From assembly GCA_963712745.1 (NCBI GenBank), contig CAVQJC010000011.1:289617-353616 (forward strand): 64,000 bases of DNA, given 5' to 3'. Shown here piece after piece: positions 38,882-58,205 of the stretch. The position numbers were made by a program, and so were the translations under genes. The notes under the pieces were generated by a model. It saw nothing but the letters and a program-made list of their open reading frames with translations, had not been told where the DNA came from and searched no databases. This DNA is from an uncultured Chloroflexia bacterium (GTDB lineage Bacteria; Chloroflexota; Limnocylindria; Limnocylindrales; CSP1-4). Numbering within the stretch: the stretch's first letter is position 1; each line of letters starts with the position of its first letter.

Positions 38882-39727
38882 ATGTCGGATGCGCCCAGCG
38901 GACAACCAGTGATCCCTCGCGCGCGCCCAGCCTCGGGGAGACCGGATGCTGCCGACGGGGCAAGCGCGGGCGACTACCGACGGGTGGTCCTCGTTCCTCG
39001 CCGACCATCACTCCTGCGCGAGTACGAAGCGGCCGAGCAGCGGCAGCGCGATGAGCTCGACGATTTCATCGACGAGCTGTTTGGCGGCACGACCGATGAG
39101 CCGCCTGGTCGCTTCGACGCGATCCTCGTCGTGGTCGGACTCGTCCTTGTCGCATGGGCCGGCATCCTGGGCGGCCCTGCCCTCGCTGCGTGGGTCGGCA
39201 TCGCCGGGATCGTGCTGGGTCTGGCGCTCCCGATACGGGCCGCTCTGCGCAAGTACGGTTCCTTGAGGACCGGGGTGAAGCGAGGGCGCCTCTTCGGCGG
39301 CGGGCAGATGCTTGACGCTTCGCATCCGGCCACGGTCGCCCTGATCGACGCCTACGCGCACCTCATCCAGATGTCATGCCTTCAAGGCACCGGCGAGCCC
39401 AAACGAGCGGTGGCGGCCGGCCACATGGCCGTGACGGAGGTTGCCAACTACCTCGATGGCAAGCCCCCCGAGGGCCCGGCCAAGACTCGCTTCGTGACCA
39501 TGCGCACGGAGGCCATCGAGGCTCTCTCGCGACAGATGATGCGGTCGCACGATCGCTGGGCGGCGAAGACGGCTGCCGAGCAGTCGCTGGGCACCGAGAC
39601 TGGCCTCGAGCCGGCTGGGGCATCGCAGTTCGAGTCGCTGAACGCACTGGCACGCAGCGGTGCCGTCGCAGAGTTGGAGGCATTGAACCACCAGCTCCGG
39701 CGAGAGACCGCCGATGAACCGCACTGA
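38882..39727 (+). CDS. Hypothetical membrane protein (two adjacent TM helices); start uncertain (38696/38762/38882)
   Basis: ORF with G/C-rich third positions. Hydrophobic stretch 'FDAILVVVGLVLVAWAGILGGPALAAWVGIAGIVLGLALPI'. Confidence 0.5.
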   Translation: MSDAPSGQPVIPRARPASGRPDAADGASAGDYRRVVLVPRRPSLLREYEAAEQRQRDELDDFIDELFGGTTDEPPGRFDAILVVVGLVLVAWAGILGGPALAAWVGIAGIVLGLALPIRAALRKYGSLRTGVKRGRLFGGGQMLDASHPATVALIDAYAHLIQMSCLQGTGEPKRAVAAGHMAVTEVANYLDGKPPEGPAKTRFVTMRTEAIEALSRQMMRSHDRWAAKTAAEQSLGTETGLEPAGASQFESLNALARSGAVAELEALNHQLRRETADEPH

Positions 39728-41372
39728 TGATCCCCGGCCCTCGGTCTCTCTAGCAGTCAGGGCCCTGACCTGGGTCGCACTGCCATTCGTCCTCGCCTGG
39801 ATGACCGTCAAGGCGACCTTCTCCACCCTGCGCCGCGGGGGGCGCTTCGCACTCTCCGTGCTACGGGTCGCGGCCCAGGAGTTCGCAGCCACGGTGCGGC
39901 GGCTGGGCACGCGCCTCGCGGCCGTCTTGCGCGCGGCGGCCCAGGCCCTCGCGGCCATGGCCCGCCGGGTCGGTCACGCCATCCGCATCGTGCTGGCCAC
40001 GATGGCCGACGGCCTGCGCCGCATCGGCACCCGCCTGCGCGTGTTCGCCCGGGCCGTGGCCGAGCTGGTGGCACGGCCGCTGCGCCTGGCCCTGGCCACG
40101 GTGCGCCGGCTGGGCACGCGCCTCGCGGCCGTCTTGCGCGCGGCGGCCCAGGCCCTCGCGGCCATGGCCCGCCGGGTCGGTCACGCCATCCGCATCGTGC
40201 TGGCCACGATGGCCGACGGCCTGCGCCGCATCGGCACCCGCCTGCGCGTGTTCGCCCGGGCCGTGGCCGAGCTGGTGGCACGGCCGCTGCGCCTGGCCCT
40301 GGCCACGGTGCGCCGGCTGGGCACGCGCCTCGCGGCCGTCTTGCGCGCGGCGGCCCAGGCCCTCGCGGCCATGGCCCGCCGGGTCGGTCACGCCATCCGC
40401 ATCGTGCTGGCCACGATGGCCGACGGCCTGCGCCGCATCGGCACCCGCCTGCGCGTGTTCGCCCGGGCCGTGGCCGAGCTGGTGGCACGGCCGCTGCGCC
40501 TGGCCCTGGCCACGGTGCGCCGGCTGGGCAGAGGCGTACTCGGTCGCGCCATGGTCCTGTTCTTCGACGTCATCGGGCTGATCTCGGTCTTGGTCTTCTG
40601 GCTCCACGAGGTCACGCGCCGCTCGACTGGCGCCATCTGGCCTCGGGTCACGGCTGCAGTGAGCCTGGCCGCAGGTCTGGGGCGAACGGTCATCCGATCC
40701 GTTCACACCTTGGTAGCCAAGATCTGGACGCTCGCGTCCGCCGCTATCGGGCGCGCTGCCAGGGCCATCGTCGCGACCGCCGCAACGGCGTGGCGACCCC
40801 TCCGCGAGGGTATCGTCGCGGCGTCGCGCGTGGTGAGCAGGATCGCGCTCGCGGCATGGAGCCTGTTGCGAGCCGCCGCCGGCGCAGTCATGCGGGCCAT
40901 CCGGCGCGCGCTCGCTGGAGCAGGCGCCTGGGCTCGTCGCGCCTTCGGGGCCGTGCGCACCGCTGCCTCCAGCGCCCGGGACGCGGTCGTCCGTACCCTC
41001 GCTCCGGTAGCGCGGCTCGTCACGCTGAGTGTCGGGGCCGTGGCCCTGGTGACCATCCGGGCGCTCGCCAGGACGCGCTCACTGGTGGCCTCGTTGGGGC
41101 GGGTCATCGCTGCCGCCGCCCGCCGTGCCGCGCAGCGCGTCCGGGCTGCCGTGTCAGCCGTACGGGTAGCGATGATGCAGTCGGCTCGCCGGGCGGCCAC
41201 AGCGGTCCGAGGTTCGGCGGCCTCCCTGAGAGAAGCCGTCGGGCGCGCCAAGGGGTCGATCGTGGCCTCGGGCAGCGCCGCACGCGAGACGGCTCGCGAG
41301 ATCCTGGGTCGCCTGCGGCACGAGCGCCCACCCGAAGGCCACGATGCCCCCCGGCGCCATGGGCCGCACTGA
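39714..41372 (+). CDS. Ala/Arg/Val-rich helical-repeat membrane protein (552 aa) containing three identical 69-aa repeats
   Basis: Third positions are almost uniformly G/C in this frame. One TM segment (MVLFFDVIGLISVLVFWL). 14-nt overlap with the upstream gene. Confidence 0.65.
   Translation: MNRTDDPRPSVSLAVRALTWVALPFVLAWMTVKATFSTLRRGGRFALSVLRVAAQEFAATVRRLGTRLAAVLRAAAQALAAMARRVGHAIRIVLATMADGLRRIGTRLRVFARAVAELVARPLRLALATVRRLGTRLAAVLRAAAQALAAMARRVGHAIRIVLATMADGLRRIGTRLRVFARAVAELVARPLRLALATVRRLGTRLAAVLRAAAQALAAMARRVGHAIRIVLATMADGLRRIGTRLRVFARAVAELVARPLRLALATVRRLGRGVLGRAMVLFFDVIGLISVLVFWLHEVTRRSTGAIWPRVTAAVSLAAGLGRTVIRSVHTLVAKIWTLASAAIGRAARAIVATAATAWRPLREGIVAASRVVSRIALAAWSLLRAAAGAVMRAIRRALAGAGAWARRAFGAVRTAASSARDAVVRTLAPVARLVTLSVGAVALVTIRALARTRSLVASLGRVIAAAARRAAQRVRAAVSAVRVAMMQSARRAATAVRGSAASLREAVGRAKGSIVASGSAARETAREILGRLRHERPPEGHDAPRRHGPH
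39891..40530 (+). repeat. 207-bp tandem repeat, ~3.1 copies, in frame inside CDS 39714..41372
   Basis: Copies at 39891, 40098 and 40305 are identical apart from one synonymous difference near 39899. The period is confirmed by identical antisense ORFs at 39974, 40181 and 40388. Confidence 0.95.
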
Positions 41373-44805: not shown

Positions 44806-45558
44806 TCATGTCGCGGCGTACCTGCCCGCTCGGTCGGCCAGCTCCTTGAGCGCATCCATGGCGGCTTCCGCGTCCTGCGGAGCGACGCCGATGGGTGCGT
44901 CTGCGAGTGCGGTGGAGGTGCGATCGAGCAGCGTCATGGCCGACTCATTCTGGGCCAGCAAGTAGGTCACCTTGGCCTCCTGTGCCGTGGCCAGCGCGCG
45001 ACGATCCTGGAGCGAGGTGATCTCAGCCTGCGCCCCGGATGCGTCGCCGGCGGACAGCTCTGCGAGCCGGACGTCGATGTAGTCGGTGTCGATGGCACTG
45101 ACGCTCTTCTTGGCGATGGCGACCTCGCGCAGGTTGGTGACGACTGCCAGGTAGACCTGCTGGGCGGTCGAGCGGTAGCGTGCGTACGTCAGCTCCCCGG
45201 TGTCGAGGCGGCTCCCGAGGATGGCCACCAGGGTGTCGCGCTTCTCGCCGATGGCATGGAGCTGGTAGGCGGGGCGCGGGTCCTCGAGTCGGTCCAGGTC
45301 GTCAGACAGCGCACGCAGCTCGATCGTACTGACCTCAGGCAGCCTCGGCGCCTGGAACTGGAGCCGGCGCAGTGTCCCGGTGGCGGACAGGGTGATCGGC
45401 CACAGGACGATGGCGACCGCGCCGATGCCGATGACGACGATCGCCAGCAACGTGGGCGGTTCGAGGAGCAGCAGGATCAGGACGACCGCCACCACGACCG
45501 CGGCGACGGCGATCCAGGACGGCGGATATCCGGCGACGGCGCGCCACCACGTTCTCAT
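44806..45558 (-). CDS. XpaC-like (5-bromo-4-chloroindolyl-phosphate-hydrolysis family) membrane protein
   Basis: Two N-terminal TM helices plus a helical C-domain. Its position directly upstream of telA mirrors B. subtilis xpaC-yaaN. The assignment rests on architecture and context only. Confidence 0.5.
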   Translation of the reverse strand: MRTWWRAVAGYPPSWIAVAAVVVAVVLILLLLEPPTLLAIVVIGIGAVAIVLWPITLSATGTLRRLQFQAPRLPEVSTIELRALSDDLDRLEDPRPAYQLHAIGEKRDTLVAILGSRLDTGELTYARYRSTAQQVYLAVVTNLREVAIAKKSVSAIDTDYIDVRLAELSAGDASGAQAEITSLQDRRALATAQEAKVTYLLAQNESAMTLLDRTSTALADAPIGVAPQDAEAAMDALKELADRAGRYAAT

Positions 45559-45796
45559 CTCGATACCCCTTCTGACAATCGAACCCAAGTGTGGTGCATG
45601 CAAGGGCCTTTCGGCAGGGAACAAGGAAGTGCGACTGCCCGACGGCAACGGCCGGCTGAACCTCCCTCGAGCCGCGCCGGTGCCGAAGTAGTCCCGGCGA
45701 CCGCCGGCTGAAGGGCGTGGCCGAGATCGGCGGCCACCCCGAACTCAAGCCGCCGCGCGCGATCGGGAGTGGTTCTCGTCCGTCCACTCTCTCTCA

Positions 45797-46150
45797 GTGC
45801 ATGCTGTGCACGAGTCCGACCCAGCGATCGTCCGATCCTGCAGGGGCCTGTGCACCCCGTGCACGAGCCCGTCCCGTCCGCTCTGGCCGTGCACCCAGTG
45901 CACGAGTCCGACCCAGCGATCGTCCGATCCTGCAGGGGCCTGTGCACCCCGTGCACGAGCCCGTCCCGTCCGCTCTGGCCGTGCACCCAGTGCACGAGTC
46001 CGACCCAGCGATCGTCCGATCCTGCAGGGGCCTGTGCACCCCGTGCACGAGCCCGTCCCGTCCGCTCTGGCCGTGCACCCCGTGCACGAGTCCGACCCAT
46101 CCGTCGCCCGATCCTGCAGGGGCCTGTGCACCCCGTGCACGAGCCCGTCC
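45797..46150. repeat. Non-coding tandem array: 92-bp unit x ~3.9, each unit carrying two GTGCAC-N3-GTGCACGAG modules
   Basis: The period was measured from CAGGGGCC at 45841, 45933, 46025 and 46117. 92 is not a multiple of 3, and all six frames are open across the array. Confidence 0.95.
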
Positions 46151-46218
46151 AGAATGTCCGGTGCCGATCACCCGGCGGGTGGGAACCCGCAGCGCGGGGC
46201 CACGACGACGGCTGCCCG

Positions 46219-46252
46219 GTCGAGTTCGGTCACCCGGTGATCGGCTGGTCGG
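46219..46252 (+). repeat. Left copy of a 34-bp imperfect direct repeat (GTCGAGTTCGGTCACCCGGTGATCGGCTGGTCGG)
   Basis: 32/34 identical to 54951..54984. Both copies are preceded by CTGCCCG. Confidence 0.85.
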
Positions 46253-46345
46253 ATGTCGTCAACGCAGCCCCATGGGACGCTACCTACGGGTCGACTGACC
46301 TTGGCCCGCCGCCGCACCCGGCGGTCGATCGAGGCCATACGACCC

Positions 46346-46374
46346 TTGAGTGGTGGAGTGCCAGCGGCTAGGCT
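46346..46374 (+). promoter_or_regulatory. Candidate promoter TTGAGT-N17-TAGGCT for the first STAND gene
   Basis: Hexamers and spacing read from the sequence. The -10 lies 35 nt upstream of ATG 46410, with a GAGAGGA SD. Confidence 0.45.
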
Positions 46375-46409
46375 GGCCAGACGCCAATCATCTAGACGCG
46401 AGAGGACGT

Positions 46410-49400
46410 ATGACTCAGCGGCAGCCCTCATCGCGGCGGGGTCAGGCGGACGTACGGCAGACGCGAACGGGCTCCGCCGCCAGCGGTCGGCGCGCGCCCC
46501 GACTGGCCACCTTCATGGTCGTCGACCTGGCCGGATCGGACGCCGTCCTGGCGGGGCTCGGTGAGGGCCGTGCGGAGGCTTCGCGCCCGGCCTACGTCAC
46601 GCTCCTGCGCAACGCGGTCGCGGCACACGAGGGGAGCGAGCTGGTGCTGCTGGACGACCGAGCGTTGGTCGCCTTCGCCACCCCCTCGTCGGCGGTGGCT
46701 TCCGCCGTCTCGATCCAGCGAGCGGCCGAGCGGCACAATCGGTCCCACGACGATCGGCTCGATCCCCGCATCGGCATCCAGTTGGGCGAAGCCACCGAGC
46801 CCGTCTTCGCCTCAGGAGGTGGCGAGTACGTCGCACAGCCCGCGATCCAGGCCCGCCAGCTGTGTGAGGCTGCGCTCGCCGGTCACATCCTGGTGTCTGA
46901 ATGGGTCTCCGCCCTGGCTCGGCCGGAGCCATCGCTCTCCTTCGAACGAGCTGGGCTGATCGACCTCTCCGGGGCCCCGGAGCCAGTACCGACGTTCGAG
47001 GTCCGATTCCAGGACGCCCCGGACCGCCGGCCCTCGCTCCCGCCCGAGCTCGCCGCCCGGCCCAGGGGTCGCTGTTCCTTCGTGGGGCGGTCGTCGGAGC
47101 GAGAGCGGTTGCGCGCCGTGTGGAAGGCGGCGGCTGGCGGCAGGCGCCGGCTGGTCTTCGCAGTGGGCGAGCCCGGCATCGGCAAGAGCCGTCTGGCGGC
47201 GGAGTTCGCCATCGAGGCACATGCTGACGGCGCGGTCGTGTTCTCCGGCCGCTCGTTCGAGGAATCGGTCGTCCCGTACCAGCCGTTCGTCGAGGCGCTG
47301 CGCCAGTACGTCAACGACTGCGACCCGGTCGAGCTCGAAGCGCAGCTCGGTGCCGATCCGTCACCGCTGGTCACGCTGCTCCCTGAGCTGGCGGCACGTC
47401 TGCCGGGCCACACGGAGCTGCAGGCTGCGGAGGGCGAGCGTCATCGGCTCTTCGATGCCGTGGCCACACTGCTCTCGACCGTCTCGACCTCCTCGCCCGT
47501 CCTGCTCGTACTCGACGACCTGCAGTGGGCCGATCCGGCCACGCTGCTCCTGCTCAAGCATGTCGTACTCGACCCGCGGCCGGCCTCGATGCTCATCCTC
47601 GGGCTCTATCGCGACACCGAGGTCGGCGAGTCGCATCCACTGGCCCGGCTGCAGGCCGACGTCGAGCGCGACTTCACCGTCGACCGAGTCACCCTCACCG
47701 GCCTTGCCGACGCCGACGTCGCGAGCATGCTCGACGAGATGTTCGGTTGGTCGCCGCCGGTCACGGTCGCCCACGGCCTGCGCGAGGAGACCGAGGGCAA
47801 CCCGTTCTTCCTGCAGGAGGTCATCCATCAGCTCCACGAGACCGGCATCGCGGACGACCGCGAACGCCTGCTGCGGGGGCACCTCGTCTCGGATGGGATG
47901 GGGGTTCCCGAGCGGGTCCGGGACTTCGTGGCCAGGCGCATGCAGCGGCTTTCGACAGGCGCGCTCGAGATCCTCGCGGTCGCGGCCGTGGTGGGCACGG
48001 AGTTCGGCCTCGACATCCTCGCTAGCGTCCTCTCGGCAGACCCCGACCGACTCGTCGACGATCTCGAGGAGGCCGTCGAGGCGCGGCTCGTGGTAGAGGT
48101 TCCCGGTCGGCTCGGCACGTACTCCTTCGCCCATGCATTCTTCCAGGGCGCTCTCCATGAACGTCAGGGCGCCAATCGGCGTGCGCTGCTCCACGCGCGT
48201 GTGGCTGAGGCCATCGAGGATCTGCAGCCCGATGACCCCACGACGCTCTCAGAACTCGCGCGCCACTACGCGTTGACCGCCGGTCGCTACGCGCAGAAGG
48301 TCGTCCACTACGGCGCGGCTGCCGGCGATCGTGCGTTCGCGCAGCTAGCCTTCGAGGACGCCATCGCGGAGTACACCCGTGCGCTCGACGCACTCCCGCT
48401 GGTGGCTACTGCCCCCGAGTCGACCCAGGCCAACCTGCTCGTGCGCTTGGGTGAAGCCCAGACGCGTGTCGGTGACGCCGCGGCGGCCAAGGGATACTTC
48501 CTCGCGGCGGCCGATCTCTGCGTCAGGGAGAACTCGTTCGAACCCCTCGCGCGCGCCGCACTGGGCTACGGGGGGACCGGCAAGTTCGGAGCGATCTTCG
48601 ACCCATTCGGAGTCGTCAACGAGACGCTGGTCGATCTGCTCGAGCACGCCATCGCGGCTTGCCCGAGTGGCCAGGAACACGACCGCGTCCGACTGCTGGG
48701 CTGGCTGGCCCAGGCGCTCTACTGGTCGGACCAGGACGAGCGCCGGCATGTGCTGAGCCAGGAGGCGCTCGACACCGCACGCCGGATCGGCGAGCCCGCG
48801 GTCATCGCCCACGCCCTCCACAGCCGGCATGTCGCGCTGTGGGGGCCCGGCCACCTGCCTGAGCTTCGGGCGGCCGCCGAGGAGATGCTCGCGCTAGGCC
48901 GGTCCCTGGGCGATCGCGACATCCAGCTGAAGGCCTACACCTGGCTCATCACCGACGCCCTGCAGACAGATCCCATCGAGGTCGTGGACGGGTACATCGC
49001 GGACTATGCGGGCCTCGCAGAGGAGTTGCATCGACCGTACTTGCTGGGGTACGCCGAATCGATGCGCGCGGCGCGAGCGCACCTGGAAGGGCGATTCGAC
49101 GACATGATGCGGTCGATGTCTGCGCAACTCGCGCACTCCGAGGGTGCCGATGCTGATCGCGCGCAGGAGGCCCATCGCTGGCAGATGGGACTGTTCATGC
49201 TGGACCTCGATCGTGTCGACGACGCCTTGATAGGCACCCTCGCGGAACAGAGTGCACGCTATCCGGGACTGACCTTCGACGTGATGCTGGCGCTGGCCTA
49301 CGCCATCGTCGACCTCCGCGAGGAAGCCTGGGTGAAGCTGGCCCGGCTGGCGCCCGAGGATCTGGCCTCGATCCCCAGGGACTGCATGTGGGCCGGCACG

Positions 49401-49841
49401 ATGGCCATGCTCTCGAGGGTCGTCTACAAGCTTGGGGCGGTCGAGTACGCGCGACCCCTCTACGACCTCTTGGCCCCCTACGCTGAGCGCAACAGCATCT
49501 GGGGTTCAGGATTCATCGTCTTTGGCCCCACCAGTCGGTTCCTGGGCCTGCTCGCGACCACCTTCGGCGAACCGGACCTGGCCATCCCTCGCCTCGAACA
49601 CGCGATCCAGCGCTGCCAGGACCTCCACTCGCCCCCACTGGCGGCACGAGTGAGGACCGACATGGCGAGAGCGTTCCTGGCACGTGGCGCCGACGGCGAC
49701 GTGGAGCGGGCCCGTCGGTCGCTCGAGGACGCCCGGCTCACCGCTGCGGAGCTTGGCTTGTCCGGCCTGGGACAGGAGGTAGTCGACCTCCTGTCGACTG
49801 CCACGCTGCCGGGCGCGCGCACGGCCTCGGATGCCACTTGA
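46410..49841 (+). CDS. STAND-type NTPase: class-III-cyclase-like domain + P-loop NTPase + TPR/helical-repeat region; no C-terminal HTH seen
   Basis: 'VVDLAGS...LLDDRALVAF...RIGIQLGEA' cyclase-homology layout. Walker A 'GEPGIGKSRL'. Walker B 'VLLVLDDLQWAD'. Long helical-repeat tail. Confidence 0.85.
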   Translation: MTQRQPSSRRGQADVRQTRTGSAASGRRAPRLATFMVVDLAGSDAVLAGLGEGRAEASRPAYVTLLRNAVAAHEGSELVLLDDRALVAFATPSSAVASAVSIQRAAERHNRSHDDRLDPRIGIQLGEATEPVFASGGGEYVAQPAIQARQLCEAALAGHILVSEWVSALARPEPSLSFERAGLIDLSGAPEPVPTFEVRFQDAPDRRPSLPPELAARPRGRCSFVGRSSERERLRAVWKAAAGGRRRLVFAVGEPGIGKSRLAAEFAIEAHADGAVVFSGRSFEESVVPYQPFVEALRQYVNDCDPVELEAQLGADPSPLVTLLPELAARLPGHTELQAAEGERHRLFDAVATLLSTVSTSSPVLLVLDDLQWADPATLLLLKHVVLDPRPASMLILGLYRDTEVGESHPLARLQADVERDFTVDRVTLTGLADADVASMLDEMFGWSPPVTVAHGLREETEGNPFFLQEVIHQLHETGIADDRERLLRGHLVSDGMGVPERVRDFVARRMQRLSTGALEILAVAAVVGTEFGLDILASVLSADPDRLVDDLEEAVEARLVVEVPGRLGTYSFAHAFFQGALHERQGANRRALLHARVAEAIEDLQPDDPTTLSELARHYALTAGRYAQKVVHYGAAAGDRAFAQLAFEDAIAEYTRALDALPLVATAPESTQANLLVRLGEAQTRVGDAAAAKGYFLAAADLCVRENSFEPLARAALGYGGTGKFGAIFDPFGVVNETLVDLLEHAIAACPSGQEHDRVRLLGWLAQALYWSDQDERRHVLSQEALDTARRIGEPAVIAHALHSRHVALWGPGHLPELRAAAEEMLALGRSLGDRDIQLKAYTWLITDALQTDPIEVVDGYIADYAGLAEELHRPYLLGYAESMRAARAHLEGRFDDMMRSMSAQLAHSEGADADRAQEAHRWQMGLFMLDLDRVDDALIGTLAEQSARYPGLTFDVMLALAYAIVDLREEAWVKLARLAPEDLASIPRDCMWAGTMAMLSRVVYKLGAVEYARPLYDLLAPYAERNSIWGSGFIVFGPTSRFLGLLATTFGEPDLAIPRLEHAIQRCQDLHSPPLAARVRTDMARAFLARGADGDVERARRSLEDARLTAAELGLSGLGQEVVDLLSTATLPGARTASDAT

Positions 49842-49866
49842 GCGGCGACGAGGAGCGGGCTAGGCT
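49838..49866 (+). promoter_or_regulatory. Candidate promoter TTGAGC-N17-TAGGCT for the second STAND gene; the -35 overlaps the stop codon of the first
   Basis: Same hexamers and spacing as 46346..46374. GAGGGAGGG SD before ATG 49904. Confidence 0.45.
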
Positions 49867-49903
49867 GGCACTCACGCGGGACGCTACGTGCGAGGGAGGG
49901 CGG

Positions 49904-52900
49904 ATGACGCCGAGGCAGCCCCGGTTCGATGTCGATGAGGCCGATCTACCGTCGGCTGAACCTGCATCCCTGGGCGACGGTCACGGGCCATCCCAGCTGG
50001 TCACCTGCCTGGTCATCGACCTCGCCGAGTCGAACGCGGTCCTTGAGCGGCTCGGCGAGGGGCGTGGGGATGCCTCGCGTAGCGCATACCCGACGCTTCT
50101 GCGCAACGCTCTTGTCGCTCAGCATGGCCGGGAGCTTTCACGCCGCGACGATCGCGTGCTGGCTGCGTTCGACGTGCCTACGGAGGCCGTGGCCTGTGCC
50201 GTGGCCGTGGTGCGCTCAGCCGAGCGGCACAACCGGCGGCAGGCTGGCAGGCTCGACGTCCGCGTCGGGATCCAGATCGGCGAAGCTGACGAAGCGGCGT
50301 TGACCTCCGAGCGCGGCGACCTCATCGCTCGTCCCGCGATACAAGCAGCGCAATTGTGCGCTGCAGCCGCCGACGGCCAGATCCTGGTCTCCGATCTGGT
50401 GGCGGTCCTGACCCGCGCCGACTTGTCCATCCGCTTCGAGCGCGCCGGCCTCCTCGACATCGCCGAGGCGACCGATCCGTTGCCCACCTTCGAGGTGGTC
50501 CACCGCGAGCTTCCCAGCGACCGCCCGCCGTTGCCGCCGGGGCTGGCTGCGCGGCCCTCCGGCCGCTGTTCGTTCGTGGGCCGCGGAGCGGAGCGCGAAC
50601 ACCTGTTGAGGCTGTGGGCCGCGGCCGCCGACGGCGAGCGCCGCCTGGTCTTCGCGCTGGGCGAGCCCGGCATCGGCAAGAGCCGTCTGGCGGCCGAGTT
50701 CGCGGCCGAAGCGCACGCCGACGGGGCCGTCGTACTCTCCGGCCGCTCGTTCGAGGAGTCGATCGTCCCCTACCAGCCATTCGTCGAGGCCCTGCGTCAG
50801 TACGTCGCCGACTGCGATCCTGCCGGGCTCGAGGCACAGCTGAGCCCCGACCCGACCGCGCTCCTGACGCTCGTGCCGGAGCTCGCGGCTCGCATCCCGT
50901 CGCCCGCGACCCGCGAAACGAACGAGGGCGATCGCTACCGGCTATTCGATGCGGTCGCCGCCTTGCTCTCGACCATCTCCGTCAGTTCGCCGGTGCTGCT
51001 CGTGCTCGACGACCTGCAGTGGGCCGATCCGGCCACACTGCTCCTGCTCAAGCACATCGCGCTCGATCCACGCCCCGCCTCGATGCTCATCCTTGGGCTC
51101 TACCGCGACACCGAGGTCGGGATGTCGCACCCGCTGACCCAGCTGCAGGCCGACGTCGAGCGGGATCTCGCCATCGACCGCGTCTCGCTGGCCGGCCTTG
51201 CCGACGCCGACGTCGCCAGCATGCTCGACGAGATGATCGGCTGGTCACCACCATCAGCCGTGGCCCGTGGGCTACGCGAAGAGACCGAGGGCAATCCGTT
51301 CTTCCTGCAGGAGGTCATCCACCAGCTCGACGAGTCGGGTATCACGACCGACCGCGAACGCCTGCTTCGCGGGCACCTCGTCTCGGGGGGGCTCGAGGTA
51401 CCCGATCGCGTCCGGGACTTCGTCGCCCGGCGCCTGCAGCGTCTTGCGCCCGCTGCGCTCGAGATCCTCGGCGCGGCCGCGATTGTGGGCACGGAGTTCA
51501 GCCTCGACGTCCTTGCACGGGTGCTGGTGGCCGATCCGAGCCGACTCGTCGACGACCTCGAGGAGGCCGTGGAGGCACGCCTGGTCATCGAGATCCCCGG
51601 TCGCGCCGGCACGTACGCCTTCACGCATGCGCTCTTCCAGCAGACGCTCCACGACCGGCACGGCAGCAACCGACGGGCCTCGCTCCATGCGCGCGTGGCC
51701 GATGCCATCGAGACGCTGCACCCGGACGATCCATCGGCGCTGTCGGACCTGGCCCGGCACTACGCACTGACCGCCGGACGCTACGCGGAGAAGGTCGTCC
51801 TCTACGGTGCAGCGGCTGGTGACCGCGCCTTCGCGCAGCTGGCGTACGAAGATGCGCTACAGGAGTACGGCCGGGCGCTCGACGCGCTTCCGCTGGTGGC
51901 TTCGGCCGACGAGCTGACAAAGGCTGACCTGCTGGTGCGTCTGGGTGAGGCCCAGACGCGTGTCGGCGACGCGGCAGCTGCCAAGCGGTCCTTCCTCGCG
52001 GCCGCCGAACACTGCGTCGACGAGGGCTCGTCCAGCATCCTCGCTCGGGCTGCACTGGGCTACGGGGGCACCGGCAAGTTCGGCGGCATCTTCGATTCCT
52101 TCCAGGTGGTCAACGAGACCCTGGTGGGTCTGCTCGAGCGTGCCATCGAGGCCTGTCCGCACGACGAGCAAGCCACACGCGTCCGACTGCTGGGACGCCT
52201 GGCACAGGCGCTGTACTGGTCGGACGACCGGGAGCGCATGCTCACGCTGAGCCAGGAGGCACTCGACTCCGCTCGCTGCATCGGCGACCCTACGGTCATC
52301 GCTCATGCCCTCCACAGCCGCCATGTCGCGCTGTGGCATCCCGACCACCTCCCGCAGATCCGCGCGGCTGCCGAGGAGATGCTCGCGCTGGGCGAGTCGG
52401 AGGGCGACCGGGACATCCAGCTGAAGGCCTACACCTGGCTCATCACCGACGCCTTGGAGACCGATCCATTCGAGGTCGTGGACCAGTACGTCGCGGGCTA
52501 TGTCGGGCTTGCCGAGGAGCTCCACCGGCCCTACCTGCTTGGATACGCGGACGCCATCCGCGCAGCACGCGCACATCTCGAGGGTCGTTTCGACGAGATG
52601 GCCCGGCTGATGGGCGCCCAGCTCGCCCATACCGATGGGGCCTACGCGCGCCGCGCGAAGGAGGCGCACCGCTGGCAGCTGGGGTTGCTCCTGCTGGACA
52701 TCGGTCGTGTCGACGATGCCCTGATCGTCGAGCTCTCCGAGCGTGCGGCCCGTCACCCGGGGCCCACGTTCAGGGCGATGCTGGCGTTGGCCTACGCTAC
52801 AGTGGACCGCCGGGACGAAGCCGCCGCGGAGCTGGCCGGGTTGGCCAACGGAGACCTTGGCTCGATCGCGAGGGATTGCATGTGGGCAGCCACGCTGGCC

Positions 52901-53329
52901 ATGCTTGCGCGGGTCGTCTCTAGGCTCGAGGCGGTCGAGCACGCCCGTTCCCTGTACGACCTGCTTGCGCCCTATGCCGACCGCAACTGCCTGTGGGGCT
53001 CCGGGTTCATGATCCTGGGACCCATCAGCCGCTATCTGGGCAGGCTGGCCACGACATTCGGCGAGCCCGACCAGGCTCTGGCGCACCTCGAGCATGCACT
53101 TGGACGCTGCCACGAACTGGGCTCGCCTCCGCTGATCGCGAGGACGAAGGTCTCGATGGCGCGGGCGCTGTCACGACGCGGCCTCGAAGGCGATGAGGCG
53201 CGCGCGCGCATCCTGCTCGCGGAAGCGAGCCGTAGTGCTTCCGAGATGGGGATGCCCGGGCTGGCCGATAGTTGCAGGCAAGTGTTCGCGGAGATCGGAC
53301 CCCGCGTGAGCGAGGCCCCAGCCCGATGA
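49904..53329 (+). CDS. STAND-type NTPase paralog (cyclase-like + P-loop + TPR)
   Basis: Colinear with 46410..49841 and highly similar by eye (for example SRLAAEFA.EAHADGAVV.SGRSFEES.VPYQPFVEALRQYV). Same Walker motifs. Confidence 0.85.
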   Translation: MTPRQPRFDVDEADLPSAEPASLGDGHGPSQLVTCLVIDLAESNAVLERLGEGRGDASRSAYPTLLRNALVAQHGRELSRRDDRVLAAFDVPTEAVACAVAVVRSAERHNRRQAGRLDVRVGIQIGEADEAALTSERGDLIARPAIQAAQLCAAAADGQILVSDLVAVLTRADLSIRFERAGLLDIAEATDPLPTFEVVHRELPSDRPPLPPGLAARPSGRCSFVGRGAEREHLLRLWAAAADGERRLVFALGEPGIGKSRLAAEFAAEAHADGAVVLSGRSFEESIVPYQPFVEALRQYVADCDPAGLEAQLSPDPTALLTLVPELAARIPSPATRETNEGDRYRLFDAVAALLSTISVSSPVLLVLDDLQWADPATLLLLKHIALDPRPASMLILGLYRDTEVGMSHPLTQLQADVERDLAIDRVSLAGLADADVASMLDEMIGWSPPSAVARGLREETEGNPFFLQEVIHQLDESGITTDRERLLRGHLVSGGLEVPDRVRDFVARRLQRLAPAALEILGAAAIVGTEFSLDVLARVLVADPSRLVDDLEEAVEARLVIEIPGRAGTYAFTHALFQQTLHDRHGSNRRASLHARVADAIETLHPDDPSALSDLARHYALTAGRYAEKVVLYGAAAGDRAFAQLAYEDALQEYGRALDALPLVASADELTKADLLVRLGEAQTRVGDAAAAKRSFLAAAEHCVDEGSSSILARAALGYGGTGKFGGIFDSFQVVNETLVGLLERAIEACPHDEQATRVRLLGRLAQALYWSDDRERMLTLSQEALDSARCIGDPTVIAHALHSRHVALWHPDHLPQIRAAAEEMLALGESEGDRDIQLKAYTWLITDALETDPFEVVDQYVAGYVGLAEELHRPYLLGYADAIRAARAHLEGRFDEMARLMGAQLAHTDGAYARRAKEAHRWQLGLLLLDIGRVDDALIVELSERAARHPGPTFRAMLALAYATVDRRDEAAAELAGLANGDLGSIARDCMWAATLAMLARVVSRLEAVEHARSLYDLLAPYADRNCLWGSGFMILGPISRYLGRLATTFGEPDQALAHLEHALGRCHELGSPPLIARTKVSMARALSRRGLEGDEARARILLAEASRSASEMGMPGLADSCRQVFAEIGPRVSEAPAR

Positions 53330-54936
53330 GCGAGTCTGGAGCGGCGGGCGCCGCACTCACCATCGCGGACGAGGTGGAGCGCATCGCACCAGGCGCGACC
53401 TGGCGGGAGCTGTGCCGATGGCCGCCCGACGTCTTCGCAGCCACCGGTTCGATCCTGGCGGACTCGGGCGCCTACCGCAGCGTTGTCTGCCCACCGGAGG
53501 GGAGGTCTTGGCCGCCGCCGATCGATGGCGATGGCGAGACGGAGTGGGAGCGGGCGATCCCGCGCGCGGGTGGCGAGTGGGCCGAGTGGTCCTCGGCGTC
53601 GGAGCTCATCGGCGATCCGCCGGCGCCTGTGGACCGGTTCGTCACTGCCCTTGACGCGGCCGGCGACACGCCCATCACTGAGCTCGACGAGCCGCCCAGC
53701 TGGGAGACGGTGACGGCGCTGTTCGGTCTCCATGCCATGGCCGACGAGGCCAGTGCCGGGGCTGGTCTCGACTCGGCCACGAAGTTCCAAAGAGTGGCCC
53801 TCGAGACGCTCGAGGCGACCGGCTCGCTCTCGCGCCTGCCCACCGATCGCGTGCGCGTGCTGCCCAAGCTCAGGCCCCCCGAATCCGGGATCACGCTGCG
53901 CTCGATCTCTCACAACCTTGCGCTCGATCGTTCGGAGGTGCGCACTACCTGGCTGCGGGCACCGGCACCACGGTCCAACGCTCCGGCCTCACAACGTGGT
54001 CGTCTGACGCTCCTGCTCGTGCCTTTCCCGTCCAACGTGCATGCCAATGACTTCCGTCCCGTCCGCGGTCCGCTGCTGAACATGGACAGCAGCCGCTACG
54101 GCTTCTTCGAGTACGCTCCCACCGAGCCGCTCGACCTCGAACGCATCATCGCTCTGGTGAGGTCCGCGCAGCTGCGTGTCGGTGCCATCGACGCGGTCGT
54201 GCTGCCGGAGGCCGCCCTCGACGAATCGGTCGTGGCGGATCTCCAGGAGCTCGTGTGCGGGGTCGGAGTCCCATATCTCATCGCCGGCGTCCGCCGGGCG
54301 GCGACCGAGGACGAGCCGTTCGCCACGAACTACGCCTACTTTGGTGGCGCCGGCTGGCACGCGGCCCAGCACAAGCACCACCGCTGGTGCCTGGACCCGA
54401 CCCAGGTGCACCAGTACCACCTTGGCGCGGCGCTCGAGCCGAACCACCGCTGGTGGGAGGCCATCCGCATCCAGCGGCGGAGTCTCAACTTCATCACCAC
54501 CGCCGAGCCTGAGGGCCTGACCATCTGCCCGCTCGTGTGCGAGGACCTCGCGCGGCCGGACCCGGTAACCGACGTCATCCGGGCAGTGGCGCCGACGCTG
54601 GTGGTCGGGCTCCTGCTCGATGGGCCGCAGCTGGTGGCTCGCTGGCCGGCACGCTACGCCAGCGTGCTCGCGGACGACCCGGGCAGCTCAGTGCTGACGC
54701 TGACCGCGCTGGGCATGGCCTGGCGCAGCCAGCCGTCGGGCTTCGACGCATCCCGCGTCATCGCCCTGTGGAAGGACCCGCACCGCGGCCTCCAGCAGAT
54801 CGCCCTCGCTCGGGATGCGCGAGCGGTAGCGTTGACCGCGCACCGCCGTGAGGTGGAGGTGGTCTCGGCCGACGGACGTACGAGCTCGCATCCGGTCTCC
54901 GAGCTGGTCCTGTCGGGGCTGGAGCAGATCGATTGA
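53326..54936 (+). CDS. Hypothetical protein (536 aa), translationally coupled to the STAND paralog; the C-terminal half has a possible nitrilase/C-N-hydrolase-like Glu-Lys-Cys pattern
   Basis: ATGA start/stop overlap at 53326-53329. G/C-rich third positions. Segments 'IDAVVLPEAAL', 'AQHKHHRW', 'GLTICPLVCEDL'. The functional guess is weak. Confidence 0.6.
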   Translation: MSESGAAGAALTIADEVERIAPGATWRELCRWPPDVFAATGSILADSGAYRSVVCPPEGRSWPPPIDGDGETEWERAIPRAGGEWAEWSSASELIGDPPAPVDRFVTALDAAGDTPITELDEPPSWETVTALFGLHAMADEASAGAGLDSATKFQRVALETLEATGSLSRLPTDRVRVLPKLRPPESGITLRSISHNLALDRSEVRTTWLRAPAPRSNAPASQRGRLTLLLVPFPSNVHANDFRPVRGPLLNMDSSRYGFFEYAPTEPLDLERIIALVRSAQLRVGAIDAVVLPEAALDESVVADLQELVCGVGVPYLIAGVRRAATEDEPFATNYAYFGGAGWHAAQHKHHRWCLDPTQVHQYHLGAALEPNHRWWEAIRIQRRSLNFITTAEPEGLTICPLVCEDLARPDPVTDVIRAVAPTLVVGLLLDGPQLVARWPARYASVLADDPGSSVLTLTALGMAWRSQPSGFDASRVIALWKDPHRGLQQIALARDARAVALTAHRREVEVVSADGRTSSHPVSELVLSGLEQID

Positions 54937-54950
54937 CTGCCCGCAGGCCA

Positions 54951-54984
54951 GTCGAGTTCGGACACCCGGTGACCGGCTGGTCGG
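54951..54984 (+). repeat. Right copy of the 34-bp imperfect direct repeat
   Basis: GTCGAGTTCGGACACCCGGTGACCGGCTGGTCGG. It starts 15 nt after the stop of CDS 53326..54936. Confidence 0.85.
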
Positions 54985-55078
54985 GCGACCGGCCACGTGC
55001 CCTGAGAAGACTCCCCGCGTCCGAGACAGGGAGGGGCGGCGCCCGTGGGTCCGGGAGCCGCCTGGAGGAGGTCGCATA

Positions 55079-55094
55079 GGGGCGTTGGCGCCCC
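55079..55094. terminator. GC hairpin GGGGCG-TTGG-CGCCCC between convergent genes; possible bidirectional terminator
   Basis: Read from the sequence. No clear U-tract. Confidence 0.3.
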
Positions 55095-55102
55095 GGCATG
55101 CC

Positions 55103-56415
55103 CTACGCCAGCAGCTCTTGGGCCACGGTAGCGGCCGTGGCGGCGTCCTTGGCGAAGCCGTCGGCCCTGATCTCGGCCGCGAACTCGTCGGTCACCGGGA
55201 CGCCACCGACCATGACCTTGGCCGCGGGCGCCGCCGCGCGCATGGCGCTGACCGCGTCCTTCATGCCCATCATCGTGGTGGTCAGGAGGGCGCTGATGCC
55301 GACGATGTCGGCGCCGTGCTCCACCGCGCTGTCGGCGAAGGCCGCGGGCCAGCCGTTGGTGACGAGATCGACGATCTCGTGCACGGTTTCATACAACTCG
55401 ATGGTGTTCTCGATGGGCGTTTCGGGCAGAACGTAGTCGTGGCTGGGGGAGGCGACATAGCCGCCACCGGGCATCATGACCTCCAGGACCTCGCGAGTCC
55501 TGCTCCTCACGAGGTCGGGAGTGCCCTCGAGGACGAACTTGGTATCGATGCAGCCGTTCATCAGGATCCGGTCGCCGAACGCCGCCTTCAGTTCAGACGG
55601 CTCCATGCCCCCGGCGGATGGCTGCAGTGCCTGCAAGCCATCCAGGCCGATCTCGATCATCGTGGGGATGAGGGGCGCAAAGCCGCCGTAGCAATGCATC
55701 ATCACCTTCAGGCCGTAGTCATGACCGAGCTCCACCAGGCGCTTCAGGTGCGGGGCGAAGAAGCGACGGAAGGTGGCTTCGCTCATCAGCGGCCCGTTCA
55801 TGCCGCCGAAATCGTTGCCGATGAAGAAGATGTCGATGAGATCGGCCGCCGCGTCGAAGATGCGCTCGCTGACCCCGAAGTAGTAGTCCACGATGTCCTC
55901 GTGGAGGGCTTCCACCAGCTCGGGTTCCTCGTACATCTTGACGAGGAGGTTCTCCATGTCGAGCAGGTCGATGGCGTCGCGCCAGAAGGGGGACCAGTCC
56001 CCCCAGGATCGCGTACTCCCCCTGCCAGTCTCCGATCTCCGCCCGGATGCCAGCGGCACTCATCCAGGCCGGATCGGGCCAGGGATAGTCGTGCACCTCT
56101 CGTAGCGTGGCGCCGGCTAGCGGGTGACTCCGGGGCATGCCACAGCCGTAACCGTGCCGCTCCACGCCGAAGGGCAAGCGCTACGTGAAGCCCGGGGCCA
56201 GGTTCGCATCGGGGCCGGATCCGATAGGCCCCGCGTAGGTCGCGTGCACGCGCCTGAAGTCATCTCCCAGGAAGACCGACAGGGCTTCGTCATCCGGCAA
56301 CCCCAGGTGGTCGAACATCGCCTGCCTGGTCTCAGGGGCAGCGCCGAACCATGCTGGCACCGCGGTCCGGTTCCTCGAAGGCGAAGGCTGCCAACACGCG
56401 GTCCCTGGATGTCAT
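55103..56415 (-). pseudogene. Decayed uroporphyrinogen-decarboxylase-family (MtaA/CmuA-like) methyltransferase fused to the distal part of a B12-binding domain
   Basis: Reconstructed reading MTSRDRVLAAFAFEEPDR|VPAWFGAAPE...GFT*RLPFGVERHGYG...EYAILGG|DWSPFWRDAIDLLDMENLL... It needs a frameshift near 56357-56368, read-through of TAG 56181-56183, and a frameshift at the C6 run 55999-56004. The tail 'ADIVGISALLTTTM...VMVGGVPVTDEFAAEIRADGFAKDA' is B12-domain-like, but no DxHxxG is visible. Confidence 0.8.
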
Positions 56416-56464
56416 GGTGCCCCATCAGCCACGTCAGTCCCCCTCGCTGCGCCCCGTATCCACG

Positions 56465-58168
56465 CTAGAACAGGCCGACCGGGCGTCCCTGCTCGTCGAT
56501 GTCGACGTTCTCACCGGCAGGACGGCTGGGCAGGCCCGGCATCGTGCGCATGTCGCCCGCGAGCGGGTAGATGAAGCCCGCGCCCGCGGCCAGCTTGACC
56601 TCGCGGATGGGCACCCGGAAGCCGGACGGCCGGCCCAGCAGCGCCGGATCGTGCGACATCGAGAGGTGGGTCTTGGCCATGCACACCGGCAGGTGGCTGT
56701 AGCCCAGCCGGTCGTACTCGGCCAGGGCCTTGGCCGCGGCCGGCGCGAGGTCGATGCCGTCGGCCCCATAGACCTTCGTGGCGATGGTCTCGATCTTCTC
56801 GAGCAGCGGCATCGCGTCGGGGTAGAGCAGCCTGAACTCGGACGGCTCGGACGCCGCCTCCCACACCGCCGCGGCCAGCGCTTCTGACCCGGCCCCGCCG
56901 TCGGCCCAGTGGGTGGTCACGACCGCATCGCGGGCGCCGGCTGCCAGCGCCACCTCGCGGATGACCTCGAACTCCGAGGCGGCGTCACCCGGGAAGGCGT
57001 TGATGGCCACCACCACCGGCACGCCGTACTGGCGCACCAGCTCGATCTGGGCGGCGAGGTTCTGGCCACCCGCGCGCACCGCCTCGGGGTCCTCCGCCAG
57101 CAGCGCCGGGTCGAGCGGCTTGCCGGCCACGATGCGACCCACGCCACCGTGCATCTTCAGGGCCCGCACCGTGGCCACCACCACCGCGGCATCGGGCGCC
57201 ATGCCCGAGGCGCGGCACTTGATGTCGAAGAACTTCTCTGCCCCCATGTCCGCGCCGAAGCCGGCCTCGGTGACGACGATGTCGCTGGTCGCCAGGGCGA
57301 CCCGGTCGGCGAGGATGGAGCTGTTGCCATGGGCGATGTTGGCGAAGGGCCCGGCATGGACGAAGGCCGGCCCGCCCTCGAGGGTCTGCAGCAGGTTGGG
57401 CTTGATGGCATCGAGCAGGAGCACGGTCATGGCCCCGGCCACGCCCAGGTCCTCGGTCGTGACCGCTTTCCCCGACCGGTCGGTGGCGAGCACGATGCGA
57501 CCCAGCCGCGCGCGCAGGTCGAAGACGTCGGTGGCGAGGGCCAGGATGGCCATGACCTCGCTGGCCACGGTGATGACGAACTCGCTCTCGCGCGGCACCC
57601 CGTTGACCTTGCCGCCGAGGCCGATGTTGACCTTGCGCAGGGCGCGGTCGCTGATGTCGACCACCCGCGGCCAGGTGATCGAATAGGGGTCGATGTCGAG
57701 CGGATCGCCATGGTGGAGGCTGTTGTCGAGGAAGGCGCTCGCGAGGTTGTGCGCGGCGCCGATGGCGTGCACGTCACCGGTGAGGTGGAGGTTGAAGTCC
57801 TCCATGGGGATGATCTGCGAATAGCCGCCGCCGGCGGCCCCGCCCTTGATGCCGAAGACCGGGCCCAGCGAGGGCTGGCGGATGGCGACCGCGGCCGTGT
57901 GGCCGATGCGGTTGAGACCCTGCACCACACCGACGGTGGTGGTGGTCTTGCCCTCGCCCAGCGGGGTCGGCGTGATGGCGGTCATGACCACGTACCGGCC
58001 GCGCGGGTTCTCGCGCTCGACACGTCTGAGCCCCTCGAGCGTGACCTTGGCCTTGGTCGCGCCGTAGGGTTCGATCTCATCGGGCCGCAGCCCGAGCTCG
58101 GCAGCGATGTCGGTGATGGGCCGGGGGGTGACCGAGCGGGCGATGTCGAGGTCGGTCAGGGCGGTCAT
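56465..58168 (-). CDS. fhs: Formate--tetrahydrofolate ligase
   Basis: 567 aa. 'TAITPTPLGEGKTTTTVG' P-loop region and family-typical sequence throughout. Confidence 0.95.
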   Translation of the reverse strand: MTALTDLDIARSVTPRPITDIAAELGLRPDEIEPYGATKAKVTLEGLRRVERENPRGRYVVMTAITPTPLGEGKTTTTVGVVQGLNRIGHTAAVAIRQPSLGPVFGIKGGAAGGGYSQIIPMEDFNLHLTGDVHAIGAAHNLASAFLDNSLHHGDPLDIDPYSITWPRVVDISDRALRKVNIGLGGKVNGVPRESEFVITVASEVMAILALATDVFDLRARLGRIVLATDRSGKAVTTEDLGVAGAMTVLLLDAIKPNLLQTLEGGPAFVHAGPFANIAHGNSSILADRVALATSDIVVTEAGFGADMGAEKFFDIKCRASGMAPDAAVVVATVRALKMHGGVGRIVAGKPLDPALLAEDPEAVRAGGQNLAAQIELVRQYGVPVVVAINAFPGDAASEFEVIREVALAAGARDAVVTTHWADGGAGSEALAAAVWEAASEPSEFRLLYPDAMPLLEKIETIATKVYGADGIDLAPAAAKALAEYDRLGYSHLPVCMAKTHLSMSHDPALLGRPSGFRVPIREVKLAAGAGFIYPLAGDMRTMPGLPSRPAGENVDIDEQGRPVGLF

Positions 58169-58205
58169 GGATGGTCGTCCTCCTCGTCGTGTGATGGCGC
58201 CGGGC

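Follow-up and report, generated by a model that had tools for sequence, protein, structure and literature searches.

MIRU-VNTR loci are head-to-tail intergenic arrays of 40-100-nt units that occupy tens of loci in a high-GC genome and vary in copy number, and in NIMEs conserved dRS3 repeats of ~20 nt alternate with variable RS blocks, again between genes and at many loci. The dRS3 repeat has been equated with the CGTC-1 REPs, and most Neisseria elements are found in large clusters (PMC3733652). REP families carry a GTAG or CGTC tag and favour inverted dimers, head-to-tail dimers being absent or rare (PMC3733652), and REP clusters are reiterated in tandem along with flanking DNA (Di Nocera et al. 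2013, PMC3733652). Among 261 prokaryotic reference genomes surveyed for satellites, transposed families of long-repeat, non-coding type were seen only in Leptospira interrogans and Methanocella conradii, and 18 of 119 bacteria had more than four satellites per Mb (Subirana and Messeguer 2019, PMC6749651).

Here, we describe a 92-nt tandem array from an uncultured member of the Chloroflexota. The source genome is a soil metagenome-assembled genome (MAG) of 4.22 Mb in 20 contigs, with a GC content of 68.5%, a completeness of 84.6% and a contamination of 5%, and the window, that is, the whole stretch of DNA that was analysed, covers 64,000 nt of it (C11:289617-353616). The closest TelA loci are those of soil MAGs labelled uncultured Chloroflexia or Candidatus Limnocylindrales. 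The array is probably one locus of a dispersed, non-coding, genome-specific repeat family, in which a short box has spread and has been amplified locally head-to-tail, with no functional tie to the STAND genes beside it. A lineage-specific dispersed repeat of REP/BIME-, NIME- or MIRU-like type is the best-supported assignment of this TGCAC-box family, which is most likely selfish or neutral satellite DNA rather than a STAND control element. This assignment draws on the observed dispersal, intergenic location and lineage specificity of the box, on the anatomy of its arrays and on the lack of covariation in its hairpin.

The array and its boxes are located as follows (window positions).

45797-46150, plus strand: tandem array, 3.8 copies of a 92-nt unit made of a 53-nt A and a 39-nt B sub-unit (TRF, unit and A/B alignments; repeat family D1)
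45797-45821, plus strand: TGCAC box 1, A-type, edge variant GTGCATGCTGTGCACGAGTCCGACC
45850-45874, plus strand: TGCAC box 2, B-type, GTGCACCCCGTGCACGAGCCCGTCC
45889-45913, plus strand: TGCAC box 3, A-type, GTGCACCCAGTGCACGAGTCCGACC
45942-45966, plus strand: TGCAC box 4, B-type
45981-46005, plus strand: TGCAC box 5, A-type
46034-46058, plus strand: TGCAC box 6, B-type
46073-46097, plus strand: TGCAC box 7, A-type, CCC spacer variant
46126-46150, plus strand: TGCAC box 8, B-type and last, the array ending after ...GAGCCCGTCC

TRF called a repeat of period 92 at 45806-46150, with 3.8 copies, 98% matches and 0% indels, in agreement with the original prediction of a non-coding head-to-tail array with an exact 92-nt period. 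In the register of that prediction, the units start at 45797, 45889, 45981 and 46073. Alignment of the units showed that units 2 and 3 (45889 and 45981) are identical to each other and that unit 1 (45797) has three differing positions, all at its 5' edge, while unit 4 (46073) carries five substitutions within its first 78 nt and the repeat is abandoned at 46151. Inner copies that have been homogenised and edge copies that have decayed are typical of a genuine satellite in evolution, which is what the array had been claimed to be. A second level of repetition lies inside the 92-nt unit: an A part of 53 nt and a B part of 39 nt match at 34/39 positions with 14 nt of indels. The unit is thus a diverged dimer and the array a higher-order repeat.

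The paired GTGCAC modules that had been described, with their alternating spacing of ~39 and ~53 nt and their 15 hexamers, were all recovered. Fifteen GTGCAC hexamers fall within 45797-46150, and GTGCAC-N3-GTGCACGAG modules occur eight times in the array, compared with 0.01 expected. The sequence GTGCACNNNGTGCACGAG is likewise present eight times (at 45797, 45850, 45889, 45942, 45981, 46034, 46073 and 46126; one copy with 1 mismatch), spaced alternately by 53 and 39 nt, with 0.01 matches in shuffles. The spacers between the boxes, 21 and 35 nt in length, are two fixed sequences that recur in each unit.

From an alignment of 20 distinct instances, the 25-nt box consensus was determined as kTGCAC-CNNs-TGCAC-sAG-TyC-GAC-C. 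Positions T2, G3, C4, G12, C13, A14, A17 and C24 are invariant in these 20 boxes and six further positions are at least 90% conserved, giving 14/25 strongly conserved positions in total. A genome search with the core kTGCAC-N4-TGCAC-sAG-N3-GAC yielded ~48 copies at ~14 intergenic loci, distributed over seven contigs of 51-660 kb (C1, C6, C11, C15, C17, C19 and C20). An nhmmer profile built from 12 seeds, with E-values that are partly circular for the seed loci, produced ~50 matches with E<1, intergenic except for 2-3 according to a crude GC3-based ORF caller by which 76% of the genome is called coding. It also recovered the non-seed loci C20:550091 (four matches), C20:631720 (four matches) and C6:92117/92212, all of which are tandem arrays. 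The box loci are the following (contig and position).

C11:335413-335766, plus strand: the array at 45797-46150 of the window, 8 boxes, period 92
C15:33275-33572, plus strand: 6 boxes with mosaic 41/50/91 spacing
C15:33628-33740 and 34685, minus strand: partial boxes and one full box
C17:281414-281642, plus strand: 6 boxes, period 41
C17:281782, minus strand: single box
C17:107841/107892, minus strand: boxes with period 51
C20:632071-632345, minus strand: boxes with period ~102
C20:631720-631898, plus strand: half boxes, period 52
C20:550091-550270, plus strand: boxes with period 52
C6:91933-91996, plus strand: boxes with period 21
C6:92117/92212, minus strand: boxes with period 95
C17:312090, C11:231627, C11:103420, C19:26090, C1:253579 and C17:100021, various strands: single boxes

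Tandem arrays are present at eight of the box loci, with periods of 21, 41, 51, 52, 92, 95, 102 and 141 nt. Outside the 25-nt box, the sequence is unrelated from locus to locus, and full-length, MITE-like copies are lacking. Consistently, blastn between box arrays gave core-driven identities of 67-69%, and a blastn search of the genome with its own region 45600-46410 picked up the arrays on C17 and C20. The boxes are predominantly arranged head-to-tail; inverted pairs are restricted to four loci (C15, C17:281, C6 and C20:631-632), where minus-strand boxes lie 100-1100 nt after plus-strand ones. The C15 array is a mosaic of 41-, 50- and 91-nt spacings, as exchange between boxes would give.

Judged from their translations, the genes flanking the box loci are functionally unrelated. 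They include genes for a cytochrome bd oxidase (cydA), LacI, SorC and MarR proteins, ECF sigma/anti-sigma pairs, an acyltransferase, ABC ATPases, a kinase and a glycoside hydrolase. The original prediction had named a dispersed element without association to neighbouring genes as the finding that would undo it, and this largely describes the 25-nt core (~14 loci, unrelated genes), although not the 92-mer as a whole. As a separate observation, about 6 of the 14 box loci, counted from translations, lie upstream of regulator-type genes, which could hint at regulation.

Among the genomes compared, the box family is specific to this Chloroflexota genome. The pattern TGCACN4TGCACGAG occurs 22 times here, compared with 0-3 times in genomes of the same genus and 0-1 times in small genomes of the sister family. 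Likewise, TGCACSAGTYCGAC has 30 matches here against 0-4 single matches per genome in 48 congeneric species, a count at about the level of the reversed-pattern control. Only marginal short matches were obtained by blastn of 45600-46410 against the genus, and none against plasmids and phages. Exact-pattern searches returned seven single matches and no arrays from 241 million JGI metagenome records, and one single match from viral contigs. Moreover, boxes are missing from orthologous spacers of congeners, for example from the one in front of the XpaC-like gene in L024, L025 and L033, the closest relatives, and from the one in front of cydA in G010.

Each module is predicted to fold, as single-stranded DNA, into a 6-bp/3-nt hairpin of -7 to -8 kcal/mol, in line with the folding potential proposed earlier, and the box contains a 15-nt palindrome. 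The whole unit has no significant extra structure relative to shuffled sequence (z = -1.7 and -0.6). Among the 20 distinct boxes, no compensatory pair changes were found: 10/20 boxes have a disrupted outer hairpin pair and 6/20 a disrupted closing pair, while the three inner pairs are invariant and thus uninformative. Since variants break the hairpin without compensation, the conserved feature is the sequence with its asymmetric tail sAG-NNC-GAC rather than the hairpin fold. Conservation of this kind is compatible with a protein that recognises the box (a transposase or binding protein) or with a very short unit whose copies share a recent ancestor; a selected fold does not fit. A structured RNA or selected hairpin was accordingly dismissed, there being no covariation and no significant z-score for the unit.

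A search for enzymes or known families that might account for the box gave the following results. No RAYT gene (PF01797), which would encode an IS200/IS605-like Y1 transposase, was detected in the genome, which is 84.6% complete, whereas the control genomes did respond; a RAYT/REPtron system was rejected for this reason. Dispersed repeats of 1-2 kb mostly represent duplicated ordinary genes, together with a single element that was assigned to the IS110 family by visual inspection of its translation and is the only clear IS found. The copies of this element have no boxes at their ends, and IS elements with terminal boxes were thus discarded as an explanation. Neither a recombinase nor a transposase gene was found in the flanks examined or beside the other box loci. 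Against a CRISPR array, in which repeats of 24-48 nt alternate with unique spacers near cas genes, stand spacers that do not differ between units, a module of 18-25 nt and flanking genes in which no cas domain was found, and this reading was rejected. Plasmid iterons or a partition centromere array, which adjoin rep or par genes on a replicon, were rejected as well, given flanks that encode XpaC-like, TelA and vWA proteins on one side and an AAA_16 STAND protein on the other, an occurrence on seven contigs and the lack of plasmid matches.

The XRE-HTH gene that lies between the boxes on C15 was considered as a cassette or a box-binding protein and was likewise set aside, since it is also found, conserved and divergent, next to cydA in G010, where no boxes occur. 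Three paralogs of this gene adjoin unrelated arrays, with no common flanking motif. The spacer between cydA and the XRE gene measures 878 nt here versus ~220 nt in G010, which shows that arrays have inflated it.

Like REP/BIME elements, which are imperfect extragenic palindromes of 20-40 nt in many copies, the box is ~25 nt long, partly palindromic, extragenic and species-specific, with tens of copies, and its arrays of core plus local spacer match the REP clusters that include flanking DNA. Nevertheless, the box family is not REP in the strict sense, because it lacks the GTAG tag (its tail is CGAC, with CGTC only in the B-type boxes of this array), because no RAYT was found in this incomplete genome while a cognate RAYT is a REP criterion, and because the boxes are mainly head-to-tail and their stem is without compensatory changes. 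With NIMEs and dRS3, the family shares the alternation of a conserved short box with variable spacers, the intergenic location and the dispersal. It differs from them in that the box sequence is unrelated to dRS3, the host belongs to a different phylum and the blocks within one box locus are identical tandem copies instead of mosaics of RS families; in addition, dRS3 serves as a phage or IS110-type integration target, and for the box no link to a phage or integrase was seen, with no IS110-end box and no phage or plasmid match.

The likeness to MIRU-VNTR lies in dispersed, intergenic, head-to-tail arrays, here at eight box loci with periods of 21-141 nt. By analogy with MIRU-VNTR, the copy number of the box arrays would be expected to vary, and the box loci could serve as ready VNTR markers for strain tracking in metagenomes. 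In contrast to MIRU loci, which are homologous over the whole unit, the box loci are homologous over the 25-nt core alone; they also show no small-ORF or operon-coupling pattern, and their sequence is unrelated. The families of the prokaryotic survey (PMC6749651) resemble this one as non-coding satellites at several sites of one genome, and the present genome is satellite-rich, with ~20 arrays of at least 3.8 copies per Mb under criteria that are only roughly comparable; on the other hand, members of the box family share the core and not the whole repeat. The box family is a further example of such transposed non-coding satellite families. As genome-spread families of this type are rare in prokaryotes, it adds a case from uncultured soil Chloroflexota (Limnocylindrales-type MAGs), and one of unusual design, in which a 25-nt core is common to all loci and the spacer has been amplified locus by locus.

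The surroundings of the array comprise the following features (window positions).

44806-45558, minus strand: XpaC-like gene, then genes for TelA and a vWA protein
45559-45626, minus strand: region upstream of the XpaC-like gene, conserved in the closest relatives (blastn); homology with L024, L025 and L033 stops at ~45618-45626
45627-56464: 10.8-kb segment not in the closest relatives, with, in this order, the array at its left edge, the STAND cassette and a decayed URO-D/B12-binding gene
46211-46252, plus strand: left 42-nt direct repeat of the STAND cassette (family D14), 60 nt downstream of the array
46346-46374, plus strand: promoter-like TTGAGT-N17-TAGGCT upstream of STAND1, read in the sequence, ~196 nt downstream of the array
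46410-49841, plus strand: STAND1 gene, AAA_16
54943-54984, plus strand: right 42-nt direct repeat of the STAND cassette, 88% identical to the left copy

The XpaC-like gene (minus strand) and the STAND gene (plus strand) diverge from an intergenic region that was previously put at 850 bp and measures 851 bp (45559-46409). The XpaC-like protein is 85-86% identical to its counterparts in L024, L025 and L033, in which the formate-tetrahydrofolate ligase gene (fhs) is the immediate neighbour of the XpaC-like gene. Homology to these relatives is lost at ~45620 and regained at 56465, indicating that 45627-56464 is a strain-specific insert. Within it, the STAND cassette contains two paralogous STAND genes (70% identical) and a 554-aa gene, and the decayed URO-D/B12-binding gene is assembled from copies of two C1 genes. 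The 42-nt direct repeat that brackets the cassette has only two copies in the genome. It was also examined as a possible inverted box and rejected, with agreement at 17/24 positions by eye, 4/8 invariant positions wrong and no nhmmer match.

The original prediction implied a tie of the array to the STAND module, and this part did not hold. Apart from adjacency, nothing ties the array to the STAND genes. The core is dispersed beside unrelated genes, the array lies outside the 42-nt repeats that bracket the cassette, and no boxes were found near STAND2 (around 49838) or near the other STAND paralogs of this genome. Pfam analysis of the STAND proteins identified AAA_16/AAA_22 only and no DNA-binding domain, and the hairpin is without compensatory change in 20 boxes. 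No close ortholog of the STAND protein is present in the genus, the best identity being 33%. The array is thus not evidence for special regulation of the adjoining STAND/nitrilase-fold cassette.

Several other explanations can be weighed against a dispersed, locally amplified repeat. That the array is a gene for a repetitive protein or for a structured RNA is extremely improbable. As had been noted before, all six frames are open, with 0 stop codons across 45797-46150, and local hairpins are predicted, both of which would agree with such a gene; yet 92 is not a multiple of 3, which makes an in-frame repeat impossible, and a Pfam search of the six ORFs overlapping the array gave no match, so that a repeat-coding array was rejected. 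An Rfam scan of 45000-47000 gave no credible match, its two hits being far below the gathering score and outside the array, and the z-scores of the unit and the lack of covariation argue against an RNA as well. A stutter of the long-read assembly, with a single unit in the true genome, is very improbable too: the source is a MAG of limited completeness and with some contamination, as given above, but the edge units have substitutions of their own, the unit itself is a diverged A/B dimer and the same architecture is found at seven other loci. A 1554-bp Logan contig from ERR15459714, which encodes an identical XpaC-like protein, likewise speaks against an artefact. It ends 277 nt upstream of the start codon, which corresponds, from the gene coordinates, to position 45835 of the window, which is where the final 31-mer found in unit 1 only (45805-45835) ends. 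Logan contigs are built with k=31, and a k=31 graph would break at 45835 given at least two units; inferred from coordinates, the contig end would thus provide independent support for the repeat. This short contig was the only one returned by an exact-protein look-up of the XpaC-like protein in other strains, and the same look-up gave none for STAND1. The box loci are likely break points in short-read assemblies.

The conservation of the box also bears on readings in which it has a partner protein. The boxes could be sites of a sequence-specific protein (a regulator, a nucleoid-associated or partition-type protein, or a fork barrier), the array acting as a phased platform on the divergent XpaC/TelA and STAND promoters or as a titrator. 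We consider this unlikely, even though eight invariant and six nearly invariant positions per 25 nt in 20 distinct boxes with unrelated spacers, conservation of sequence and not of pairing, and the dimer-operator size of the 13-bp palindrome TGCAC-N3-GTGCA would all suit it. Loci upstream of regulators (XRE-family, divergent from cydA; LacI; SorC; MarR; ECF sigma; STAND) point the same way, and the fork-barrier variant could also account for the neighbouring tandem duplications. On the other hand, the boxes are missing from the orthologous intergenic regions of the congeners (L024, L025, L033 and G010) and thus form no conserved regulon; some lie between convergent genes (C19 and C11:231627), their orientation relative to genes is inconsistent, and STAND2 and the other STAND paralogs are without them. 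No candidate binding protein was found, nor was a consensus sigma-70-like promoter or a terminator in 45400-46500. That the boxes are ends or recombination sites of a mobile element, and the array an att-like entry region of the STAND cassette or of the whole 10.8-kb insert, appears quite improbable. The array does lie at the left edge of this strain-specific insertion, only 60 nt from the 42-nt repeat bracketing the cassette, minus-strand boxes follow plus-strand boxes at four loci in the manner of inverted ends, and a lineage-specific spread is typical of mobile DNA. Against this stand the lack of a recombinase or transposase in the flanks examined or beside other box loci, a right edge of the insert that is without boxes, and a bracketing repeat that is not a significant box; in addition, the loci share the 25-nt core alone, and the XRE gene on C15, apparently flanked by boxes, is conserved next to cydA in G010. 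Rather doubtful as well is the idea that a lineage-specific DNA-transaction protein (for example a recombinase, an HUH-type nuclease or a fork barrier) recognises the box, spreads it to new intergenic sites and triggers tandem duplication nearby. If true, this would be a natural case of protein-driven minisatellite birth in a bacterium, and the 42-nt repeats of the STAND cassette, which are diverged and box-like, might mark capture by the same system.

Under the reading as a dispersed repeat amplified locally, the mobile and conserved unit would be the ~25-nt box, carried to ~14 intergenic sites, at most of which the box and whatever DNA adjoined it would have been amplified head-to-tail. Amplification together with local flanking DNA would explain why periods and spacers are specific to each locus. 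We infer slippage or unequal exchange as the amplification mechanism, slipped-strand mispairing or unequal exchange between neighbouring boxes being the likely route; this would account for the mixed spacings on C15, for the A/B higher-order structure of the present array and for the homogeneity of its inner units. At 45797-46150, an ancestral unit of ~40-53 nt may have been duplicated and have diverged into A (53 nt) and B (39 nt), after which the 92-nt A/B dimer would have been amplified to ~4 copies, with subsequent homogenisation of the inner copies and decay of the edge copies. The site of the array, between the XpaC/TelA operon and fhs, may be a recombination-prone 'junkyard'.

Some observations count against this reading. 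In a genome that is ~85% complete, no mobilising enzyme could be linked to the box. Furthermore, 14/25 conserved positions with unrelated spacers are also expected of a protein-binding site, be it an operator, a decoy or a nucleoid site, and the location of about 6 of the 14 loci in front of regulator-type genes belongs here too.

The genome as a whole carries a high load of tandem arrays. TRF identified 84 arrays with at least 3.8 copies (~20 per Mb), and non-coding arrays with at least 3.8 copies amount to ~10 per Mb on the basis of crude GC3-based gene calls. Strong arrays number 38.7 per Mb here versus 13.8 per Mb in the relatives, for which 0.8 Mb was sampled from eight long-read congeners, and arrays with a period that is not a multiple of 3 number 14.0 versus 3.8 per Mb in the same 0.8-Mb sample. 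When this genome was resampled in equal windows, the array counts of the relatives were reached in 0.05-0.9% of draws. A k-mer clustering of all arrays gave spurious links among GC-rich arrays and was uninformative. The co-location of boxes and arrays, together with the ~3-fold excess of arrays over congeners, makes this genome a possible system for the study of minisatellite origin. Unrelated arrays are found at most 300 nt from 9/14 box loci, compared with 5.6% of random intergenic positions, an approximate baseline given the crude gene calls; either the box drives local duplication, or permissive spacers gather both.

In the closest relatives, the formate-tetrahydrofolate ligase gene (fhs) immediately adjoins the XpaC-like gene, without the segment that separates the two in the window. 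The features of this region are as follows.

Window 45627-56464: strain-specific segment of 10.8 kb, missing in the closest relatives
Window 46211-46252 and 54943-54984: 42-nt direct repeat, two copies, 88% identical
Window 55103-56415: decayed URO-D-type methyltransferase/B12-binding gene
Window 56463-58180 and C11:375938-377654 (same contig): fhs, two copies of 1718 bp

Because the neighbours upstream of XpaC also differ among other congeners, this spacer is a variable hot spot. Within the segment, the 42-nt direct repeat flanks precisely the two STAND genes and the 554-aa gene, and the pair occurs only once in the genome, suggesting that these genes entered as one cassette or can be excised together; no recombinase was found nearby. 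The URO-D-type gene is a chimeric pseudogene, since its halves match two distinct sites on contig C1 (141822-142865 and 216522-216795) with 79-83% identity.

The two fhs copies are 99.94% identical and lie in direct orientation, 28 kb apart. The 297-aa gene adjoining the second copy is the one found beside fhs-XpaC in the relatives. The pair may have arisen by recent duplication or through homologous recombination that integrated a copy, or it may be an assembly chimera.

Short tandem arrays are unusually dense in this genome, at about 39 strong arrays per Mb; a 0.8-Mb sample from eight long-read congeners has about 14 per Mb. In places the arrays form dense patches (e.g., C5:200-260 kb). The other repeats and array-associated genes, by contig, are listed below.

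L108 (congeneric locus, G001:C6) 14021-14661: non-coding-looking satellite, 61-nt x10.5, perfect (100% identity)
C2:123848-124020, C2:79687-80187, C5:150785-150912, and the XpaC-fhs spacer of congeneric loci L024 and L025: hairpin repeat GTCCCGYTSARCGGGAC
C4:200601-202065 and C20:26135-27599: IS110-family-like transposase gene, two copies, 99.9% identical
Window 39888-40530: in-frame 207-nt x3.1 repeat, 99% identity, in the gene at 39714-41372
C15:33935-34537: XRE-type HTH gene
C2:124117-124716, C1:227408-228004, C17:265494-266090: its paralogs

The perfect satellite in L108 indicates that satellites occur in the genus, with sequences particular to each species. The hairpin repeat GTCCCGYTSARCGGGAC, which in this genome also lies within tandem arrays, is present in congeners, unlike the TGCAC box, and so has the appearance of a genus-wide REP-like element. 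Among the dispersed repeats, the only clear insertion sequence seen was the C4/C20 gene, whose translation, read by eye, resembles an IS110-family transposase. The 207-nt repeat, carried by a 552-aa protein matching no Pfam family, has 4.0 copies in the homologous genes of congeneric loci L027 and L035 versus 3.1 in the window, and its number therefore differs from species to species.

The XRE-type HTH genes encode 200-aa proteins with an uncharacterised C-terminal domain. Three of these four paralogs have strong tandem arrays about 100 nt away or closer. On C15 the gene lies divergently beside the cytochrome bd oxidase genes cydAB, an arrangement that is conserved, and its product may regulate them.
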